A DNA stretch of 64,000 nucleotides from Longimicrobiales bacterium (GTDB lineage: Bacteria > Gemmatimonadota > Gemmatimonadetes > Longimicrobiales > Gaopeijiaceae): positions 320,001 to 384,000 of the forward strand of contig JAWLHJ010000003.1 of NCBI GenBank assembly GCA_041690395.1, given 5' to 3'. A program made the position numbers and the translations under genes. Shown in pieces: positions 54,096 through 63,984 of this stretch; the stretch's first letter is position 1, and each line of letters starts with the position of its first letter. The notes under the pieces were generated by a model, which was not told the DNA's origin, did not search any database, and was given only the letters and a program-made list of their open reading frames with translations.

Positions 54096-54301
54096 TTTTG
54101 AGGGCTCACCAGAGCACGCCCCGCGTTCGAGACGTCGAGGCGACGCCCCTCCTCACTCCCGATCTTCAACTGGAACTCGATGCCCTGGAAGGGAGCCGGT
54201 CCCGAGATACGGCGATCACTCGCGCGCGGATGGTCCCACCTGTTGCCCGGCGTGGCTAGTACCTCGTGCATTGTCCGGGCTCTGGCCAACCGTGGTCACA
54301 T

Positions 54302-55858
54302 GTGACCGACCAACCGGGAGTCGCCCAACTAGCAGCCAAGGAATCGTCCGACCGTGTGACCCGAAAGCAGATTCGGGGATCGGGGCTCCTCCTGTCGGGC
54401 CGTGGCGTGGGACAAGGCCTCAAGTTCCTCGCCGAGCTCATGGTGGTCCGCTACCTGAGCACCGAGGGGTACGGAGCGTGGACGTACGCTCTGGCCGCGG
54501 TCACCTTCCTGCGCGGCATGTCCGCCCTCGGTCTCAACCGGGCGCTCAGTCGATACCTCCCCCTGCACCTCGAGCGCGGGGAGTTCCAACAGTTCTATGG
54601 GGTCCTGGTGTTCGTGTTCGGCGCGCTGGTCGCGGCCGGTACGATCGTGGTGGCGGGCTTCTACGCGCTGCCGGAAGAGGTGGCCGCCCTGGCGGGGGTC
54701 TCCTCCGAGCAAGCCCTGGCGCTCCTGTTCATCGTGATCTTCCTGGTACCGGTCGAGATCATCGACATCGGGCTCACCGGCGTGAGCGCGGCGTTCGGCG
54801 ATTCCCGGACGATCTTCGTGCGACGATTCCTCCTCCACCCCGGCCTGCGGATCGCCGTTGCGGGGACCCTGGTCCTCATGAAGGCCGATATCACGCTGCT
54901 CGCATACGGCTACCTGTTCTCGGGCGTGGTGGGAATCGCCTACTACGGGTGGGCCGTGGCCGTCCAGATGCGGGACCGCGGCCTCCTCGATCGTGGTCTC
55001 TTGCGCGGCTTGCGACTACCGGTGCGCAAGGTCCTTTCCTATACGACGCCCGTCATGGCCTCGGACTGGTGCTCCATCTTCATGCTTACGGCAGGTCCCT
55101 TGCTCCTCGGCTACTTCACCGACATGAGCACCGTGGCTCTCTACCAAGTCGTGGTTCCGGTGGCTGCCTTGAACACCCTGGTGGCGCAGAGCTTCACCAT
55201 GCTGTTCGAGCCGTCGGCTTCGCGCCTCCACGCAAGAGGCGATGCGACCGGTCTGAACGATCACTACTGGCGCACGGCGGTCTGGGTGGCGGTGCTCACT
55301 TTCCCGCTGTTCGCGCTGTCGTTTACGGCGTCTATTCCCCTGACGGTCTTGTTGTTCGGGGAGCGCTACGCCGCGGCCGGACCGATCCTCACATTGCTCG
55401 CGTCGGGCCACTTCATCGGTTCGATGGCGGGATTCAATTCCGAGGCGTTGCGCGTGACCGGAAGCCTGCGGTGGCTCATCGCGGTGAACGCCCTTGGAGC
55501 TGCGACCACGGTCGGCTTGAGCGTGCTGCTCATCCCCGGCATGGGTGCCATGGGGGCCGCCATCGGATTCGCGGCAGGACATTTCCTCTACGCGGTACTC
55601 AAGCAGGTCGCCGTCCAGAGGGCCACGGGCGTCAAAGCCTTCGATCTCACCTACAAGGGACCATACATCACCATGGCGGTCGTCGCGCTGCTCTTGCTCG
55701 TGACGAGGTTGACCTGGCCTGCCGAGCCGTGGATCCTGGTGCCGGCCGCGGTTGTCGGGTCGCTCGTTGTGTACTTCAGCGCGCGCGCGAGCTTGTCGGT
55801 GCTGGACACCTTCCCGGAGCTGGGAAGGTCCAAGCTGATGCGAACCATCTTCGGCTGA
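54302..55858 (+). CDS. wzx: Wzx-type oligosaccharide flippase
   Basis: Polytopic membrane protein; VRYLSTEGYG, VALYQVV, LFGERY, LIPGMGAMGAAI; polysaccharide gene context. Start approximate. Confidence 0.88.
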   Translation: MTDQPGVAQLAAKESSDRVTRKQIRGSGLLLSGRGVGQGLKFLAELMVVRYLSTEGYGAWTYALAAVTFLRGMSALGLNRALSRYLPLHLERGEFQQFYGVLVFVFGALVAAGTIVVAGFYALPEEVAALAGVSSEQALALLFIVIFLVPVEIIDIGLTGVSAAFGDSRTIFVRRFLLHPGLRIAVAGTLVLMKADITLLAYGYLFSGVVGIAYYGWAVAVQMRDRGLLDRGLLRGLRLPVRKVLSYTTPVMASDWCSIFMLTAGPLLLGYFTDMSTVALYQVVVPVAALNTLVAQSFTMLFEPSASRLHARGDATGLNDHYWRTAVWVAVLTFPLFALSFTASIPLTVLLFGERYAAAGPILTLLASGHFIGSMAGFNSEALRVTGSLRWLIAVNALGAATTVGLSVLLIPGMGAMGAAIGFAAGHFLYAVLKQVAVQRATGVKAFDLTYKGPYITMAVVALLLLVTRLTWPAEPWILVPAAVVGSLVVYFSARASLSVLDTFPELGRSKLMRTIFG

Positions 55859-56078
55859 GCGGCTTGCTCCTCGTCCGGTTGCATCGGTGTTCGGTAACCG
55901 CGGCGCACCGTCCGAACCGTCGTACGAATCGAACAGTCGTCCCATCAGGGGCACCGCCCGCACTGAACTGCCTAGCGCTCGTGGAAGCCTCGCCGTCGGG
56001 GCGAAAACCGAGGCGCAACAAGGCCGGAGCGAAGCCGCCCGGGTCACCGTGGAGGGGCCGCCTCCGGCACGAGATGGT

Positions 56079-56094
56079 AGGCACGAGGCTTGCG
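56079..56094 (+). promoter_or_regulatory. Putative sigma-54 promoter
   Basis: aGGCACG-aggc-TTGCG, about 60 bp upstream of the GT2 start. Confidence 0.7.
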
Positions 56095-56152
56095 CCCTGC
56101 AGGGTCATTGTCGGCGATCTCCGCCGCTCGGTATCGTTCGAACGGGAGTAAC

Positions 56153-56980
56153 GTGTTGACGGAAGAAAATGACGTGCGACGACCCGACGTCTCCGTGATC
56201 GTACCGGTGAACGCTCAGGGCGATCTCGGGAACGTACGCACCCTACTCGCGGACGTGGGAAAGTACGAAGGCCCCCTGATCGTCGAGACGATCCTCGTCG
56301 TCAACAACTTCCCGGAAGGCGAGATCCCCAGCGAAGCTGATGATCTCGCAGAACTCGCGACGACCGTATTGACCATCCCTGACGTCCGCAAGCCGGGCGA
56401 GGCCGTCGGGTTTTCGGCTCGCATTCCGGGCATCCGGGCGGCATCCTCGCAGTGCTGCGTGCTCTTCGACGCCGACTGTCGGATTCCCGACCCGACCGCG
56501 CTTCTGGACTGGTATCACGAGCAGTTTCAGCGCGGCGCTGATGCCGCCTACACCCATGTGGCCTACCACGACTACGACGACGCGCTGTCCGTACGTGTGT
56601 ACTTCGCCGTGCACCACACCGCTCGATGGGTGAAGCGTCGGCTGCTCGGCATCCCTACGACCCGGGGAAGCAACTACACCGTCCGACGGGACGTTTTGCT
56701 CGAGCTCTACGACCAGGGCCTCCTGGCCGATGAGATGAACGTGGGCCCCACGATGAAGCGCTTGAAGGGCCCGGTCGTCTACGGATCCGACGAGGAGCTG
56801 ACCGTCTATACCTCAGGAAGAATGTTTTCGCCGGGATGGCGAAACTTCATTCCTTACTTCTTCTATAGGTTGCGCTACAACCTGCGGGTCCTCCCTGTGC
56901 GGCCCAACGTGGCCAGCGTGACCGGTCGTGAGAACGACCCGGTCAGGCGGTACGAAGACAATGCGCCGATCAGGGACTAA
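56153..56980 (+). CDS. GT2 family glycosyltransferase
   Basis: VSVIVPVN, ILVVN, LFDAD (DxD), GSN.TVRR, TSGR; GGGAG RBS. Confidence 0.82.
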   Translation: MLTEENDVRRPDVSVIVPVNAQGDLGNVRTLLADVGKYEGPLIVETILVVNNFPEGEIPSEADDLAELATTVLTIPDVRKPGEAVGFSARIPGIRAASSQCCVLFDADCRIPDPTALLDWYHEQFQRGADAAYTHVAYHDYDDALSVRVYFAVHHTARWVKRRLLGIPTTRGSNYTVRRDVLLELYDQGLLADEMNVGPTMKRLKGPVVYGSDEELTVYTSGRMFSPGWRNFIPYFFYRLRYNLRVLPVRPNVASVTGRENDPVRRYEDNAPIRD

Positions 56981-57235
56981 CCCTGACGTCGCGCTCGGTT
57001 GACCTGCTCTCTGTGCTTCCTGGCTTCCGCCAGCTTCTCCTTCCGCTCCTGGATCCTGGCCGCGGGATCGCCCTCCCAGTACTCCGCAGGCGGAAGGTAG
57101 CCCAGCGCCGAGTGCCTGCGCCTCGGGTTGAACCAGCCCTCGATGTAGCGGAACACGGCCATGCGCGCCTCGGCGTGGCTCCTGAAGATACGCCGGTCTC
57201 ACTCATGAGGTGTCCACCGAACCGGGTCAACTCCA
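56977..57235 (-). mobile_element. Internally deleted IS3-family remnant (terminal inverted repeat + transposase C-terminal stub)
   Basis: Terminal repeat TGGAGTTGACCCGGTTCGGTGGACAC (57235-57210), followed about 12 bp later by DRRIFRSHAEARMAVFRYIEGWFNPRRRHSALGYLPPAEY. Confidence 0.85.
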
Positions 57236-57385
57236 GTTATAGAAAAGCGGCTCGGGCCATGAGGATCTCATCTCATCACTCGGTGTGAACGCTCACGAAC
57301 ACGCGGAGGAAGAGAAATGGCCCCATGACCCGAAACCGCCGGCCCACCCACGAACCAACTCAGGACAGCTGAACGACCCCCAGGC

Positions 57386-58987
57386 TTAGCGGTGGGTCCA
57401 GCTCGTGTAACCCACGGTACGTCCCGCCCCCGCCACACCATTCATCGGGAACGACTCCCCGTAGGCGTTGTTCACCAGCTGCACCACGTCCCGGGCACGA
57501 TCGCCGTCGAACCAGCGGACGTCGCCCGTTTCCGTGCGCAGGTGCATGAGGTACTCGTGCGTGCGGAGCACCGCGCGGTCCGCGACCTCGAACGCAGGGT
57601 ATCCGGCATTCTCCAGAATGACCGCGGCGGGCACCAAGCCCTCGAGTCCGACCCAGGCATACTGCGTGTACCCCGGTTCCCACTGGTACAGTCCCCCACG
57701 CCGCATGTCACCGACCAACGCCCCGTCGATCCTCCGCACACTGCCGGCGCCGACGCGGCCTGAAGGAACACGCTTGGTGGCTCCGGCCGGATTCACGGCG
57801 CATGGATTCTGGTCGTCGTGCGTCCACCCGTCTCTCACGGGGGGAACGAGATAGATGTTCTCGCGGTCCGGCGCTCCGGGATCGCACACGAAGGTACGAT
57901 ATGCGTCCCATCCCCGCTCCATCGCCCAGTCGTCCTGCAGATAGCCCGCCACAGCCACGTACGCGAAACCCTCCTGAGCGGCCGCGTTGGCGGACGAGTG
58001 GAAGGGACCGAAAGGCCGAAGCTGACTGAGGTTGTTGTTGTCGCTGAGTCGTAGGGTCAGCCATTCGGTGGCCCACTCCTCGAAGCGGGTCCCGGCGCTG
58101 TTCGGGTCACCGTCGGCACGAAGGTCGAGCATGTCGGCTGCGATCATGTACGCTGCCAGGTTCCGACCCACGGCCAGCCAACGTCCGCCCCGCTCGGTGC
58201 CGATGGCGTCGAGCAAGCCTTGCCGCGCCTTCGCGCAGTACTGACCGGTGCGTACGCAGACCAGAGCAGCGGCCATGGTGTAGACGTCGTGGCTCGAGTC
58301 CTGGTCTGCGATATTCGCCGTTCCCGCGTCCCTGCCGGCGTCGCGCAGGAGCCTGTCCCATGCCGCACCCGAGGTGGGCAGGGCCATGATCTCATCCCTG
58401 TCGATCCAGATACCTCGGCTCGGGGATATGTCGTCCCACGAACCCTCCGGTACGTCCGCGTCCACACTGGTGGTACGGCCGACCGCGATATTGGAGTAGT
58501 TGGCGTCGGCCCAGGCAGTGCCTTCGATCCGATACGACATCATCAGGAACTCGTAGTCCGTGTCGGGATCGAGCCCCTCGACGGTGCACGACACGGTCGC
58601 GCCGACTCCCCCGAGCTCAGCGACCGGGTCACAACCAACGGAAGCCTCGCGCCATACGATGGAGGGCCGCGAGTACTTCACGCGGTAACGCGCCGGGTCC
58701 CCGGTGCCATCGTCGATATGCGTCCACGTGAGCTCAATGGACGACTCGTCCGCACGGGACACGGCCAGGTCGGGCACGCCCCCGGGCGTCGGGTACGCGG
58801 CCTCGACCGGAACGACGTCAGTCGGTTCGACGGTGACGGCCGTCGGTGAAGCGTCACCACAGGCCGTAAGAGGGGCCAGAAGGACCATCAGTGGAGCGAG
58901 CACGTTTCTCCCAAGTCCGGGAAGTCGCTCCAACATACCCTTCGACGCTACGGTTGTCCCACTGCGATCAGCAGCCATACCAGGCAT
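57386..58987 (-). CDS. Lipoprotein with an FN3 domain and a C-terminal helical, alginate-lyase-like domain
   Basis: Lipobox LTAC; SIELTW...VEGLDPDTDYEF...SN FN3 motif; C-terminal GIWIDRDEIMALPTSGAAW...NLAAYMIAADML. Start 58987 or 58936. The lyase call is inference. Confidence 0.7.
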   Translation of the reverse strand: MPGMAADRSGTTVASKGMLERLPGLGRNVLAPLMVLLAPLTACGDASPTAVTVEPTDVVPVEAAYPTPGGVPDLAVSRADESSIELTWTHIDDGTGDPARYRVKYSRPSIVWREASVGCDPVAELGGVGATVSCTVEGLDPDTDYEFLMMSYRIEGTAWADANYSNIAVGRTTSVDADVPEGSWDDISPSRGIWIDRDEIMALPTSGAAWDRLLRDAGRDAGTANIADQDSSHDVYTMAAALVCVRTGQYCAKARQGLLDAIGTERGGRWLAVGRNLAAYMIAADMLDLRADGDPNSAGTRFEEWATEWLTLRLSDNNNLSQLRPFGPFHSSANAAAQEGFAYVAVAGYLQDDWAMERGWDAYRTFVCDPGAPDRENIYLVPPVRDGWTHDDQNPCAVNPAGATKRVPSGRVGAGSVRRIDGALVGDMRRGGLYQWEPGYTQYAWVGLEGLVPAAVILENAGYPAFEVADRAVLRTHEYLMHLRTETGDVRWFDGDRARDVVQLVNNAYGESFPMNGVAGAGRTVGYTSWTHR

Positions 58988-59095
58988 CCTCTGCTCTCAG
59001 GTGTTCGGTTCCGTGAGGTTTCGGCGGGGCGGTGGAATGCCTGTGGATCGCCGTTGGAAGACCCGGCCAGACGTCGCACCATGTTTCCGGTGTCG

Positions 59096-59200
59096 AGCGC
59101 TGGCGGTCCGGCTGGCGTGATGACCGTCGCGTGACGGCCACGGTAGCCCCGTGACTCTGCGCCACCGTCTTTCAACGGCTTTGCTCTTGGCAGCGTCGTG
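59096..59200 (-). ncRNA. GEMM-I (c-di-GMP-I family) riboswitch, A20 variant (candidate 3',3'-cGAMP sensor)
   Basis: Minus strand: CGCUG-CCAAG-A-GCAAA-GCCGUU-GAAA-GACGGU-GGCGCAGA-GUCACGGGGCUACCG-UGGCCGUC-ACGC-GACGGUCA-UCACGCCAGCCGGAC-CGC-CAGCG. P1, P2 with GAAA tetraloop, P3 and the conserved junctions are all present; located in a 5' leader. Confidence 0.9.
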
Positions 59201-59299: not shown

Positions 59300-59538
59300 T
59301 TTCGCCGCGTCGGCACAACATGTCGCTCCAATAATGTTGCACCCACACGGCAATTCGTAGCTTAGGGGCGAAGTCGAATGGGCCTCACGAGGAACCGCTG
59401 ACGGGATCGATGACCGTTCGTTTTGCGAACAGTCTATGACGCGGGCGATCGACACCGAGGGGGCTGTGGTGGGTGGTGCCTGCGCGGCATGTGAGCATTT
59501 GCGCGGCTCCGAGGGGGGCACGATGCCTACTGTTGCCG

Positions 59539-59553
59539 TGGCGCGCCTCTTGC
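59539..59553 (+). promoter_or_regulatory. Putative sigma-54 promoter
   Basis: TGGCGCG-cctc-TTGC, about 70 bp upstream of GTG 59622. Confidence 0.7.
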
Positions 59554-59621
59554 CCCTTCAGCTAGACAGACCATCGATCCGGCCGGCAAGACGACCTTCA
59601 CCACACGGAGGAGGCACCTCA

Positions 59622-60326
59622 GTGGAACTACATCTGGATCACCTGAAGCGCTATGGCGTGCGGGCGTGGTTCCTTAGAGGCGCCTGCGGCGTGGCCCATC
59701 GTGCAGTCGGGTTCAAAGCGCTTCGAGGCATGACGCTCGAGCCGGACGACATGGACCCGACCTACCTCGGCGACGCCCCGCCCTTCACGCACAGGGTATG
59801 CGGTGCCGCGGACTTCTCGAGGTTGGACGACGCTCCCAAGCTGGCGTCGGACGAGTTCTACGAGGGCGCGATCGGACGGGGTGACCGTTGCCACTACATG
59901 GCGGACGGGGACCGAGTGGCGAGCTACGGCTGGTACGCCACGGCTCCGGTGCCGGCCTTCGAGGACACGTGGATCCACTTCTCGCCCGAGTACGTCTACA
60001 TGTACAAGGGGTTCACGTCTCCCGAGTACAGAGGGAAGCAGTTACACGCATACGGGATGGCGCACGCGGCGGCGGAAGCACGGACCCTTGGATACCGGGG
60101 TCTCATCAGCTATGTGGAAGTGCAGAACGAGGGGTCGCTGCGCTCTGTCGCGCGGCTGGGCTACCGGTCGTTCGGTACCTGCATCTGCCTGCGCGCCTTC
60201 GGGCGAACGCTGACTTTCAGCTCGCCGGGATGCCGTCCCTACGGCTTCGAGCTTTCGGTATCGCCGGAGCAGACCGCCAGGGCGAGGACAGTACCCTCAG
60301 CGGCCTCGGCTCATCTCGCCGAGTAG
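59622..60326 (+). CDS. GNAT family acetyltransferase (polysaccharide-locus associated)
   Basis: GGAGGAGG RBS; FTSPEYRGKQL acetyl-CoA motif; NEGSLRSVARLGY. Confidence 0.82.
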   Translation: MELHLDHLKRYGVRAWFLRGACGVAHRAVGFKALRGMTLEPDDMDPTYLGDAPPFTHRVCGAADFSRLDDAPKLASDEFYEGAIGRGDRCHYMADGDRVASYGWYATAPVPAFEDTWIHFSPEYVYMYKGFTSPEYRGKQLHAYGMAHAAAEARTLGYRGLISYVEVQNEGSLRSVARLGYRSFGTCICLRAFGRTLTFSSPGCRPYGFELSVSPEQTARARTVPSAASAHLAE

Positions 60327-61619
60327 CTTGCGCGCACCCTGGAGGATGTCGAACTCGGCCTCCACCTTCGCTCGCCCCGCGCGGCCGAAGGCCCGCCGCA
60401 ACTCGGGTTCCCCCACGAATCGCTCCAAGCGGTCGGCGAGTGCCTCCGGATCTCCGGACGGCACGAGATAGCCCGTACCCCCGTCGTCCACCAGCTCGGG
60501 GATACCGCTGAGCGCGCTCGCCACGACGGGTAGCTCGCTCATCATCGCCTCCATCAAAGCCACCGGAATCCCTTCGCGTCTTCCTGACCGCGTGGGGTGG
60601 CTGGCGAGCACGAACACGTCCGCGTCGGCCAGGAGGCGCCCGACGACCGGTCGTGGGACGGCCCCATGAAGGGTCACCCGCCCGCTGAGACCGAGCTCCT
60701 CGACGAGCCCCTCGACGTCGGACCGGAGGGCTCCGTCCCCGACGAGATCGAGATGGACGTCGACGCCCCGCCCGGCGAGTAGGTGGCAGGCGCGGACGAG
60801 GAAGCGATGCCCTTTGACCTCCTCGAGCGAAGCCACGCAGACGACGCGTAGCCTGCGGTCCCCGTCCCCGGTGCTACCGTCCCCCTTCCCCGCGGGCGCG
60901 CTGCCCCCCCGCCGCGCGAAGGCCGACGAGTCCGTTCCGCAGTGGATGACCACGACCCTGTGGCCCCGGTGCTCTCCACACTCCCTCGCGATCAGCTCTG
61001 CGTTATAGGCGGACACTGCGACGACGAACGACGCCGACGCCACCTTCGAGGGGAGCATGGTGCGATCGACGTGCAGGTCGGAGCCGTGCGCGGTGAAGCT
61101 GTAGGGAATGTCGCTCAGCCGGTTCACGATGAGCGCGGCCAACGCCGGGTGACTCGCGAAGTGCGCGTGGACGTGCTCCACGCCCAGCGCCTCCATGCGC
61201 TCGGCGAAAGCCACGCACTTGGGGAAGTAGACCACCGCACCGGCGCAGAACTTCGGGCTTCCGAGCGTGCCGGACACCATCTCCCACCACGTGCGGAAGT
61301 ACCGAGACGGAGCTCCGAACATTCGCTTCGCGTTCGCCCGCACGATCTCCCACGACAGGAAGGGCGTGAAGTGGGCCCTCTCCTCGTAGGCGGCGGCCTC
61401 GGCATGGCGTGGCCCGGGCGGCTCGTGGAGCAGCGGAAACACCTCGACCCGGGCACCCAGCTCCTCGAGCGCCTTCATCTCGTAGAGGACGAACGTTTCC
61501 GTGATCTTCGGGAAGCGGGACATGATATACGCCACCCGTAGCCCCTGCGAGGCCGGAGCGGTGGCCCTATCGGTCGCGGCGGACGTGGCGGACGTGGCGG
61601 ACGTGTCGCGCAGGGTCAC
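60297..61619 (-). CDS. GT4 glycosyltransferase (WcaL-like)
   Basis: FPKITETFVLYE, HVHAHFA, FTAHGSD, EVKG, EGIPVALMEAM (EX7E). Confidence 0.92.
   Translation of the reverse strand: MTLRDTSATSATSAATDRATAPASQGLRVAYIMSRFPKITETFVLYEMKALEELGARVEVFPLLHEPPGPRHAEAAAYEERAHFTPFLSWEIVRANAKRMFGAPSRYFRTWWEMVSGTLGSPKFCAGAVVYFPKCVAFAERMEALGVEHVHAHFASHPALAALIVNRLSDIPYSFTAHGSDLHVDRTMLPSKVASASFVVAVSAYNAELIARECGEHRGHRVVVIHCGTDSSAFARRGGSAPAGKGDGSTGDGDRRLRVVCVASLEEVKGHRFLVRACHLLAGRGVDVHLDLVGDGALRSDVEGLVEELGLSGRVTLHGAVPRPVVGRLLADADVFVLASHPTRSGRREGIPVALMEAMMSELPVVASALSGIPELVDDGGTGYLVPSGDPEALADRLERFVGEPELRRAFGRAGRAKVEAEFDILQGARKLLGEMSRGR
61578..61604. repeat. In-frame 9-bp tandem repeat (GGCGGACGT x3)
   Basis: Encodes TSA repeats at the GT4 N-terminus. 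Confidence 0.6.
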
Positions 61620-62593
61620 GAAAGAGACTCACGTTCGCTGCGGTGCCGCCATCGATCGATCTCGGCGAACCATGGCAACATCCGCAACGCGAAAATCGGG
61701 ACGGAGGTGCGGCGCGTGATGTTCGTGCGGCGAAGCTGGAATGGATCCGTCTCGCCGAGCTCGTTCAGTCCGTCTTCGCAGGTGAACCCGAGGGTGCAGC
61801 CTTCCTCGCGTGCGATACGACTCACCGTCGCGTCGTAGACGCCATAGGGATAGGCGATGGGCCGAGCGCCGGCTCCGAGTTCCCGCTCGAGGTCCTCCAG
61901 AGATCCGCGGATCTCGCTACGGACACGGATCTCGTCGAGCTTCGTAAGCGCTGCGTGATGGCGCGTGTGTGCCCCGAAGCTGACACCATCCCGCGAAAGC
62001 GCCCTCAATTCGTCCCATGAAAGCACGGGCGACACCTGACGGGAGGGTTCGCGATCGTCGAGGCCGACCTCCCGGCAGGTGCTGTCGACGAAGCGCTCCG
62101 CTTCATCATGGCCCAGGCGCCGCATCAGGGCACGTACCTGGTGGTGATCTTCGATCGGGGGCAGCGTCACGGAATCGATGGACCCTCTCGCGGCCTCCAG
62201 GGCACGGCCCCAGGTCTCATCCTTGGTGCCACGAACCGTCGCCCGGTGAAGGCGATCCCACCAGAGCGCCCGATCTGGATGGTCCGGGTAGGCCGTCGGC
62301 ACGAAGACGGTCACGGGAATCCCGAGCTCGCGCAGGATCGGCCACGCATACTCCGCGAAGTCCCGGTACGCGTCGTCGACCGTCACGTGGACCGCGCTCG
62401 CGGGCAGGGGTCGCCCCCCCTCCGAGCACGCCTCGACGATCTGCTCGAGGGTTACCGGACGATATCGCCTCCGAAGATGCTCCATCTGCCTTCGGAACGT
62501 CTCGGGCGTCGCACTCACGAGGAGGGGGTCCAGATCCGGGGTCTCGTCCGGCTCCGCGATCCGATGGTAGGTCAGGACTCTCAATAGACTCAT
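61616..62593 (-). CDS. Polysaccharide deacetylase (NodB/CE4)
   Basis: VLTYHR, VTVDDAY, FGAHTRHH, IAYPYG. Confidence 0.92.
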   Translation of the reverse strand: MSLLRVLTYHRIAEPDETPDLDPLLVSATPETFRRQMEHLRRRYRPVTLEQIVEACSEGGRPLPASAVHVTVDDAYRDFAEYAWPILRELGIPVTVFVPTAYPDHPDRALWWDRLHRATVRGTKDETWGRALEAARGSIDSVTLPPIEDHHQVRALMRRLGHDEAERFVDSTCREVGLDDREPSRQVSPVLSWDELRALSRDGVSFGAHTRHHAALTKLDEIRVRSEIRGSLEDLERELGAGARPIAYPYGVYDATVSRIAREEGCTLGFTCEDGLNELGETDPFQLRRTNITRRTSVPIFALRMLPWFAEIDRWRHRSERESLS

Positions 62594-63984
62594 GTCGGTG
62601 CGACCTCCATGTAGTAGGGATCCGCTTCTGCCCCGTACTCCCACACCCAGTCCCTGAGGGTGCCGACCGCCGCCGCCGCCAATGCCACCATGACCCAGTA
62701 GTACCGCTCGTAGGCGAGATGCAGGAAGACTCCCGTGCCCAGATAGGCGAGGAGGACCAACGTGAATCCGGTGGCCAGCCGAGCTAGGTCCGGTCGTGTC
62801 GCGACGAGGGTCAAGCGCAGCCTCCGCAGGTCGAGGAGAAGGAAGAACGGGATCGCCAGGAAGATCAGCAGGCCCACGGTGCCGGTTTCCGCCGCCATCT
62901 CGAGGTAGAGATTGTGCGCTCGGCGTGGCTCGGCGATCTGGCGAAAGCTGAGCTCCGGCAATTCCTGGTATCGGACGGCGTGAAAAGCGATGTACTGCCC
63001 CGGCCCCACCCCCAGCACCGGGTGGTCGGTGTACGCCGCGAGGGCGGAGAGCATGGCCGTCGTGCGTCCCCTCGTCGGTCCGTCGGCCTCGACCTGAGTG
63101 GATCCGAAGAGACCCGCTACGCCTGCCACGCTTTTCGCACGGTCTGCCATCCCCGGCACAGCGGTGAGTGTCACGACGACACCCACGGCCAGCACGCCGA
63201 CCAGTCGACCGGGCCGAATGAGTCGTAGTGGGACCGCGATGACCAGCAGCGCGAACAGCGCGACGAGCGCACCCCGCGAGTAGGTGAGAAGAACACCGCC
63301 GAGCAGCAGCCCGACACAGAGCCAGCCGAGGAGGGCCCCGGCCCGCCGGCCGGCGTTGAGGGCGACCATCACGGAGAGTGCGCCTGCCATCATCAGGACC
63401 TGTGCGAACCGATTCGGTTCGTCCACGGGTCCCCGGGCACGGTGCTCGAGACCGATCTCCTCCCCCGCCGACACCTGACTCGCGGAGGCGCCGAGTCCCT
63501 CGAGGTGCTCGAGGCTCCTCGGCGCGAGACCCATGAACTCCTGGTCGTAGTTCCCCGTCACGGCCTGGAAGACGGTGAGCGCCGCGAGCAGAGTCGCGGC
63601 AGCCACGGTCGCGACGATGGCGACGCGGAGGTCGGGCAAGCCACGAACCGCCTGGCGCACCAGGAACACGATCAGCAGCCCCTCGCTGACGAAGACCAGA
63701 ATGCGCTCGAACGCGACGTCGTACCCCTGGGCGGGCAAGGCCGAGAGAAGAAGAACGGCCAGAAACGACGACATCAGGAGTAGGGTCCGATCGATGACGA
63801 TCGGGCGCCGTCGGATGACGAGCTGATGGACGGCAGCGAGTGCGAGTAGTGCGGGCACGAGCACCACGGACGCGGAGGGTACGATACCCCGCTGCGCCGC
63901 AACGACGGGCCAGTTCGTATAGAGGAGGAACAACCCGAGGGCCATGGCCGGCGCCGAGAAGGTGACTCCGCGCATTCGCCTCAC
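62590..63984 (-). CDS. O-antigen ligase / Wzy-like polymerase
   Basis: Polytopic membrane protein; EPNRFA, TYSRGA, HPVLGVGPG, AHNLYLEMAAETG. Start GTG 63984 or ATG 63975. Confidence 0.9.
   Translation of the reverse strand: MRRMRGVTFSAPAMALGLFLLYTNWPVVAAQRGIVPSASVVLVPALLALAAVHQLVIRRRPIVIDRTLLLMSSFLAVLLLSALPAQGYDVAFERILVFVSEGLLIVFLVRQAVRGLPDLRVAIVATVAAATLLAALTVFQAVTGNYDQEFMGLAPRSLEHLEGLGASASQVSAGEEIGLEHRARGPVDEPNRFAQVLMMAGALSVMVALNAGRRAGALLGWLCVGLLLGGVLLTYSRGALVALFALLVIAVPLRLIRPGRLVGVLAVGVVVTLTAVPGMADRAKSVAGVAGLFGSTQVEADGPTRGRTTAMLSALAAYTDHPVLGVGPGQYIAFHAVRYQELPELSFRQIAEPRRAHNLYLEMAAETGTVGLLIFLAIPFFLLLDLRRLRLTLVATRPDLARLATGFTLVLLAYLGTGVFLHLAYERYYWVMVALAAAAVGTLRDWVWEYGAEADPYYMEVAPT

Follow-up and report, generated by a model that had tools for sequence, protein, structure and literature searches.

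A GEMM-I riboswitch aptamer of an A20/G48 subtype precedes a lyase-like lipoprotein gene in a Longimicrobiales genome with a candidate cGAMP phosphodiesterase and no recognisable cGAMP synthase

A GEMM-I aptamer carrying A at position 20 and G at position 48 is located on the minus strand of a 64,000 nt stretch of contig JAWLHJ010000003.1 (the window, numbered from its first letter) in the Longimicrobiales bacterium GCA_041690395.1 (hereafter G000; seven contigs, 98.28% complete), in front of a single gene for a predicted lyase-like lipoprotein. We propose, at a probability of about 0.5, that aptamers of this type likely bind both c-di-GMP and cGAMP, and that this one likely reads c-di-GMP in its host and turns the lipoprotein gene on. 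The evidence comes from the window and the remainder of the source genome, from an order set of 61 genomes (G000 and 60 near relatives) and from a phylum set of 401 Gemmatimonadota genomes, in which the tallies of GEMM-I cores, A20/G48 aptamers, Ser motifs and non-Asp motifs also count the unpublished genome G210, on which none of the conclusions rests. For one core gene, the close homologues that bear a name are from Longimicrobiales or Gemmatimonadota, as an earlier note on this DNA had supposed from its letters. In the one RNA run examined, 0.06 of the sequence words are present and the contigs are mostly less than 95% alike, so these contigs belong to relatives.

The aptamer

Covariance-model comparison of the whole window with Rfam 15 (cmscan) reveals a single match at gathering level, to RF01051 (c-di-GMP-I) at 59099-59195 on the minus strand, spanning model positions 1-87 of 87 with 49.0 bits (gathering cut-off 35 bits) and E 1.5e-06. 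The RNA is confirmed as a member of the GEMM-I class, and the complete aptamer with an A20 discriminator that the earlier note described is indeed present: P1, P2 and P3 can all form, A47 and C92 are in place, and A20 is seen both in the sequence and in the model alignment. In Vc2 numbering, read from the sequence, P1 joins 59195-59191 to 59102-59098 through five Watson-Crick pairs with G14-C93 on top, the G21-C46 and C22-G45 pairs are as in Vc2, and P2 (59179-59174 with 59169-59164) has six pairs closed by a GAAA loop. Because the base at 59185 is A, this is not the c-di-GMP-selective G20 form. The aptamer also has G48 and C90, a feature absent from the earlier description. Scanning the rest of the genome for GEMM-I RNAs yields one more (L002, at C1:452991-453081 on the minus strand), which is likewise A20/G48; these are the two GEMM-I RNAs of G000, and the genome contains none of the G20 type. 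L002 precedes an Ig-repeat (Big_1/Big_2) lipoprotein gene in what appears, from its neighbours as judged by eye, to be another polysaccharide-related region.

Table 1. Positions and supporting evidence for the features discussed (window coordinates unless a contig is given).
Feature	Position	Strand	Basis or remark
GEMM-I (c-di-GMP-I) aptamer, A20/G48 subtype	59098..59195	-	RF01051 full length; P1 closes at 59098
A20, base reading the alpha nucleotide of the ligand	59185	-	sequence and model alignment
A47, intercalating base (59158), and G48, subtype marker (59157)	59157..59158	-	sequence; A48 in Vc2 and Gs1761
C92 (59103, pairs with beta guanine) and C90 (59105, partner of position 48)	59103..59105	-	sequence
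Predicted expression platform: hairpin absorbing the 3' P1 strand, then a short pyrimidine run (degenerate terminator)	59060..59108	-	fold energy
Regulated gene: predicted lipoprotein with an fn3 domain and an (alpha/alpha)n toroid domain of alginate-lyase-like type; start codon approximate	57386..58987	-	Pfam fn3, model, fold match
Terminator-like site behind the regulated gene	57319..57337	-	consensus scan, 2 found against 0.9 expected; weak
Divergent GNAT acetyltransferase-like gene	59436..60326	+	stands between the riboswitch unit and the polysaccharide genes upstream
GT4 glycosyltransferase, polysaccharide deacetylase and Wzy_C/O-antigen ligase family genes	60297..63984	-	Pfam
Wzx-like flippase and GT2-like glycosyltransferase	54266..56980	+	Pfam
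HD-GYP protein with RxxQ (RSYQ), candidate cGAMP phosphodiesterase	G000 C2:97679-99349 (L333/L336)	-	motifs

The regulated gene and its locus

The ORF downstream of the aptamer starts about 110 nt after it, and its product has a lipobox-like LTAC motif and an fn3 domain (Pfam E 1e-7). The C-terminal 354 residues, with 236 homologues in a scored set of 7,999 candidates, match nothing in Pfam at E 0.01 and no PDB entry by sequence. They are modelled with a pLDDT of 92.6, and the best fold match is alginate lyase A1-III (4e1y; Z 21.2, rmsd 3.5, 276 residues aligned at 14% identity with VIA-align). AlgL is matched at Z 19.0, lyase-like matches as a group lie between Z 17.8 and 21.2, and non-lyase toroids begin at Z 12.7; an Atlas feature search returns PF05426 clusters (0.95). 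The domain shares the (alpha/alpha)n toroid fold of the PL5-type alginate lyases A1-III and AlgL, of PL38 and of Smlt1473, but at 12–14% identity to these enzymes it is a putative lyase. The regulated protein is accordingly best described as a predicted surface lipoprotein of alginate-lyase-like fold that may cut polysaccharide, and the lyase-like surface output proposed in the earlier note is borne out at that level, as are its polysaccharide surroundings, the neighbouring genes carrying polysaccharide Pfam domains.

The wider locus contains genes for Wza, Wzc, Wzy-like, Wzx-like, GT2, GT4 and deacetylase proteins, a sigma-54 response regulator and a GAF-PAS-GGDEF protein; the AlgL gene also sits within a polysaccharide synthesis locus. 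Since the GNAT gene directly upstream of the riboswitch is on the plus strand, the switch governs one gene and not the polysaccharide operon. Paralogues of the regulated gene (33–34% identity) are located behind A20/G48 aptamers in two other genomes, G001 (two copies) and G032. Just behind the regulated gene, a short stretch on the minus strand (57000-57210) resembles a transposase C-terminus, presumably of the IS3 family.

The predicted expression platform

The hairpin at 59108-59060 has a predicted energy of -30.3 kcal/mol (z -2.5; equalled by 3 of 200 shuffles), and the full leader folds at -111.6 when free against -97.8 with P1 forced. The hairpin is bulged, its U tract is short and weak, and a terminator consensus scan makes no call, so termination may be inefficient. 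An arm complementary to nucleotides 88–95 followed by four or more U is present in 56 of the 134 A20/G48 loci fetched, with a further 12 having the arm only and 66 neither, whereas the corresponding numbers for the 58 G20/A48 loci fetched are 2, 10 and 46, the loci in both groups being partly chosen; the bulged hairpin of the window is counted among the 66. An ON switch acting by anti-termination is the predicted behaviour of the window aptamer.

Spread and composition of the A20/G48 subtype

RF01051 has 111 matches in 33 of the 61 genomes of the order, of which two were dropped as unparsable; the other 109 comprise 53 G20/A48, 49 A20/G48, three C20/A48, two A20/A48 and two G20/G48 aptamers. 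There are several salient features. First, the two changes go together: 49 of 51 A20 aptamers have G48, and 49 of 51 G48 aptamers have C90. Second, position 48 has the highest mutual information with position 20 of any position (0.77 bits), and this is so in both tetraloop backgrounds, with 34 A20/G48, 27 G20/A48 and one other aptamer among those with a GAAA loop, and 13, 25 and six among those with a GYRA loop. On the aptamer tree, there are only 7–8 changes at positions 20 and 48, and the supported branches provide just two independent pairs (p 1 by sign test), so that a few events may explain the pattern. Third, the subtype is widespread. With a fixed-spacing pattern, GEMM-I cores are found in 199 of the 401 Gemmatimonadota genomes (497 matches) and A20/G48 in 86 of them (146 matches by sum), and a scan of the GTDB collection returns at least 121 A20/G48 stretches, at least 90 of them with at least five of the six P2 pairs. 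Those at least 90 that are listed belong to Gemmatimonadota (59), Acidobacteriota (10), Nitrospirota (10), Myxococcota (3), Desulfobacterota (3) and others (5); judged by sequence, and among the matches listed, A20/G48 is a subtype found mostly in Gemmatimonadota, and also in Acidobacteriota, Nitrospirota and Desulfobacterota.

There are some departures from this general picture. Three aptamers have C at position 20 (L076 in G053, L080 in G049 and L084 in G043) and one, L059, has G47; these are possibly further specificity variants or dead copies. Three A20/G48 aptamers (L148, L153 and L243), whose records bear the labels ANGP1, Chloroflexi and Planctomycetota, closely resemble Gemmatimonadota or Nitrospirota copies, a likeness that we read as mis-binning or transfer. 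Triple A20/G48 arrays are present in G064.

Downstream of A20/G48 aptamers, 62 ORFs were scanned (of 93 picked), and the matches are mostly to Big_1/Big_2 or fn3, with four to PilZ, three to REC and two to GGDEF; matches among the 41 ORFs scanned behind G20 and rare types include GH26, M23, DUF4382 and Big_2. Some loci contain mixed tandems, and among the loci chosen from the phylum pattern matches or returned by the GTDB collection scan 12 have A20/G48 followed by G20/A48 and one has the reverse order. The tandems L269-L281 and L188 are in genomes of family f4 (G173, G129, G103, G387, G379, G262, G209 and G098), all eight of which also carry an Asn-type GGDEF enzyme. Their layout consists of an A20/G48 aptamer with a terminator and, 158–196 nt on, a G20/A48 aptamer beside the ribosome site of a lipoprotein gene with Ig repeats; the ribosome site of the G20 unit is paired in both folded states in 12 of 12 cases (unpaired 0.00–0.33). 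A fixed order of this kind is easier to explain with two ligands.

In the literature examined, there is no description of a Gemmatimonad c-di-GMP or cGAMP riboswitch or of an A20/G48 subtype, nor any affinity measurement for an A20/G48 RNA, although the primary aptamer papers and their supplements may hold tested examples. A48 is listed as highly conserved in PMC3764141 and goes unmentioned in the available part of PMC5888326.

Comparison with characterised aptamers

The window aptamer has the three-way junction of Vc2 and RF01051 together with G21-C46, C22-G45, A47, C92, G14-C93 and the GAAA loop, and differs from Vc2 in having A20 for G20 and G48-C90 in place of the A48-U90 Hoogsteen pair reported for that RNA (PMC11705072). 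With the Geobacter GEMM-Ib RNAs Gs1761 and Gm0970 it has in common A20, a surface-protein output and transcriptional ON control, the last of these predicted here. However, Gs1761 is reported to have C-G at 21-46 and A-U at 48-90 (A42-U73), its C15-G40 pair closing P2, and simulations place its counterpart of position 48 in contact with the ligand (PMC6274999), whereas the window aptamer has G21-C46 and G48/C90; the pocket context of Gs1761 is typical of the solved example and is not established as a GEMM-Ib requirement. Geobacter also has the Ser-type synthases GacA and GSU1937, for which G000 has no counterpart, and the output here is a lyase-like lipoprotein rather than cytochromes or pili.

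A20 RNAs outside Geobacter are reported to bind both ligands: binding is at 53 nM for c-di-GMP and 120 nM for cGAMP in Vc2 G20A, and at 30 nM and 463 nM, respectively, in Cbe 1-2 of Clostridium beijerinckii, c-di-GMP being accommodated through protonated A20 (PMC6140456), and an A20 aptamer of Desulfobacca acetoxidans cluster 3 gains cGAMP affinity with little loss of affinity for c-di-GMP (PMC9481103). Gm0970, on the other hand, is about 1,600-fold selective for cGAMP (PMC8835794). Since published A20 RNAs often bind c-di-GMP as well or better, A20 permits cGAMP recognition but does not prove it. By analogy, the window aptamer is most like the bispecific RNAs, which offer the closest working model, and we do not file it under GEMM-Ib because its ligand is a predicted one, its pocket context differs from that of Gs1761 and a Hypr writer is absent.

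The search for a cGAMP synthase

The Hypr signature is given as Ser or Thr nine residues after a conserved Asn together with GGDE[F/Y], and GacA is reported to become an ordinary diguanylate cyclase when Asp replaces the Ser at this (Hypr) position (PMC6456294). Pfam identifies eight GGDEF-type domains in G000, of which two are degenerate and the six intact ones each carry Asp there. The Hypr-type enzyme that the cGAMP proposal of the earlier note calls for is not among them: none of the six intact domains has Ser or Thr there, and Pfam search, six-frame motif scan and a home-made HMM find no such protein in G000. One of the Asp-type genes, encoding the GAF-PAS-GGDEF protein, lies within the Wza/Wzc/Wzy locus of the window. 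The degenerate proteins (C1:475160-476197 and C6:286410-287558) retain a site resembling RxxD and are possible c-di-GMP receptors; a further degenerate GGDEF, at C3:387154-387843 inside the polysaccharide locus, scores below significance.

Other sources were also sought. A tblastn search of G000 with the Fe-S/Asn enzyme and the GAF/Ser enzyme described below matches generic GGDEF domains only. GSU1937 is reported to be a GGDDF enzyme that makes cGAMP and has Ser at the Hypr position (PMC8835794), and the GGDDF protein of G000, considered as a hidden synthase by this analogy, falls in the same clade as two Ser-type GGDDF proteins (support 100); it and 120 of 120 close homologues have Asp, and by its signature it was rejected as a candidate. 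Searches of G000 for SMODS CD-NTases give no match, with controls positive in 3 of 14; PF21654 is also without a match, though no control matched and this search says little; and none of the 30 matches of a CD-NTase motif scan is CD-NTase-like by eye. A CdaA-type DAC is present but was set aside as a source of the ligand, because C92 implies that the beta site is filled by guanine. By these signatures, no recognisable cGAMP synthase is found in G000.

Non-Asp GGDEF enzymes in relatives and other carriers

Four of the 60 near relatives have GAF/Ser GGDEF enzymes with GGDE[FY] (21 pattern matches, four of them real). These proteins (L126, L127, L129 and L135, in G015, G057, G051 and G040, respectively) combine a GAF-like part with a Ser-type GGDEF domain in a layout like that of Myxococcus GacB, and are Hypr-type candidates. 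Across the 401 Gemmatimonadota genomes, the Ser motif is found in six and a non-Asp motif, nearly always Asn, in 137, distributed as 117 of 166 genomes in f4, one of 70 in the family of the window and one of 95 in f5. The f4 enzyme (L291-L331) is a fusion of an Fe-S/[FeFe]-hydrogenase-like sensor with GGDEF, having Asn, or Ser in four cases, and never Asp among the matches listed; a protein query recovers the sensor portion from 14 of the 18 f4 genomes and from none of 43 others, among them G000. An association of A20/G48 with non-Asp cyclases inside f4 was looked for and discarded, the motif being present in 45 of 62 carriers and 73 of 104 non-carriers (p 0.86), where the strict pattern had missed 12 genomes with LK for FK, a correction that raises the share of the carriers, the non-carriers having been searched with the strict pattern only. 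Outside f4, none of 24 A20/G48 carriers has the non-Asp motif, and a looser pattern finds it in none of 18 Gemmatimonadota carriers.

Carriers in other phyla present a different distribution, 24 of 28 having a non-Asp motif and 23 of 28 Ser by codon reading. At least three of the four blank carriers look to us like mis-binned contigs. Of the non-Asp loci fetched, 29 of 30 translate to GGDEF-type domains, and one Ser-type locus carries GGEEF, a pairing reported as inactive. The baseline for the Ser-type motif is 19 of 48 in Acidobacteriota (the unpublished genome G491, on which no conclusion rests, being one of the 19) and 35 of 47 in Nitrospirota, and against it the carriers (7 of 9, p 0.065, and 9 of 9, p 0.18, respectively) are not significantly enriched. 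Counted as motif matches, partly checked as GGDEF domains, the Ser-type (Hypr) motif is common in Nitrospirota (37 of 49) and Acidobacteriota (20 of 49), and wider in distribution than the deltaproteobacterial examples in the literature.

A candidate cGAMP phosphodiesterase

One of the seven HD-GYP proteins of G000 reads RSYQ at the place taken by RPY[KR] in the other six, and its HD and GYP motifs are intact. RxxQ/N is a reported signature of cGAMP activity (bioRxiv 10.1101/600031, in which five of six candidates were cGAMP-active and three selective; also 10.1101/2021.11.05.467447). The motif type is common to the RxxQ/RxxN phosphodiesterases PmxA, Bd2325 and Gmet_3476, from which the G000 protein differs in domain architecture, and its own cGAMP activity is predicted by motif. 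Within the order set, 52 of 61 genomes have an orthologue, and of the 30 loci fetched the 27 that were parsed all read RSYQ. Because the gene is also found in genomes without a GEMM-I match (G002-G005), it does not track the riboswitch. In G000 its neighbourhood includes lexA and trp genes, and it follows immediately on a long conserved gene whose helical product we take to be a HEAT-repeat protein.

Discussion

In the working model that we favour, the signal would come from the Asp-type cyclases of G000, one of them inside the same polysaccharide locus. When ligand is scarce, the 3' strand of P1 would be drawn into the 59108-59060 hairpin and expression would be low; once it sits between A47, C92 and A20 (the last protonated in the case of c-di-GMP), P1 would be locked and transcription would continue. 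With a locus-encoded cyclase as the source, we propose that the lyase-like protein would be made together with the polymer, which it might trim or release. As G000 has no known cGAMP-making enzyme and only a likely cGAMP destroyer, c-di-GMP is the most likely input to the switch in this host. The cGAMP signalling put forward in the earlier note is in part sustained, by the RxxQ HD-GYP protein, by the Hypr- and Asn-type enzymes of other carriers and by the mixed tandems, and in part not, there being no Hypr GGDEF among the six intact domains and no CD-NTase found.

The most serious competitor, which we regard as possible though doubtful, is that A20/G48 aptamers are cGAMP-selective, with G48 adding second-shell selectivity, and that G000 has a non-defensive pathway of two riboswitches and an RxxQ eraser whose writer is missed by current signatures. 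The invariant RSYQ of the widespread eraser would fit such a pathway, as would the Ser-type GGDEF of most carriers in other phyla, the GAF/Ser enzymes of a few near relatives, the Fe-S enzymes with Asn or Ser that are common in f4, the ordered tandems (12 against one, among the loci fetched) and the ligand contact simulated at the position-48 equivalent of Gs1761. Yet a genome 98% complete offers no writer candidate, the RxxQ gene is nearly universal in the order whether or not GEMM-I RNAs are present, the enrichment of Hypr motifs in carriers is not significant, and cGAMP synthesis by the Asn-type enzymes is conjectural. An extension of the same idea, in which A20/G48 is cGAMP-selective across phyla, lineages of the Longimicrobiales and Gemmatimonadaceae type use a third kind of synthase and the tandems are two-input cGAMP/c-di-GMP gates on surface lipoproteins, is more tentative again, and we think it rather unlikely.

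The subtype might instead have been born as a cGAMP sensor in lineages that had Hypr enzymes, with the synthase later lost from this lineage or lying in a part of G000 that is unassembled, leaving the switch idle or leaky. The patchiness of Hypr-type genes in the order (4 of 60), the degenerate platform of the window compared with the clean terminators of relatives and the seven contigs of an assembly 98.28% complete are all compatible with this, but the aptamer core is intact, A20/G48 stays attached to the paralogous fn3-lyase genes of two other genomes, and the subtype is kept in many highly complete genomes without a synthase (0 of 18; Fe-S enzyme 0 of 43), a persistence that a single gap or a recent loss does not explain; we consider this improbable. 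Very improbable indeed is a retuning of the alpha pocket by the paired changes for some other dinucleotide, the beta guanine being kept. The mutual information between positions 20 and 48 in both tetraloop backgrounds and the carriers without known cGAMP synthases could be accommodated in this way, but neither a candidate enzyme nor a precedent was found, the covariation does not reach significance after correction for kinship, and the outputs (Ig-like/fn3 lipoproteins, PilZ, REC and GGDEF) are typical of cyclic-dinucleotide regulons. We therefore retain c-di-GMP as the likely ligand in G000 of an aptamer likely able to bind cGAMP as well.

That GEMM-I is an ordinary riboswitch class and that A occurs at position 20 were known already. 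What is new is the paired change at G48, which defines a subtype present in about one fifth of the sampled Gemmatimonadota genomes, and the mismatch in G000, which has a reader and an eraser of the cGAMP type but no known writer. These bear on which features other than A20 make GEMM-I RNAs selective for cGAMP, and on whether bacteria that have RxxQ phosphodiesterases and no Hypr enzyme have another cGAMP synthase. If c-di-GMP is the ligand, the subtype would serve as a warning that A20 over-predicts cGAMP signalling.
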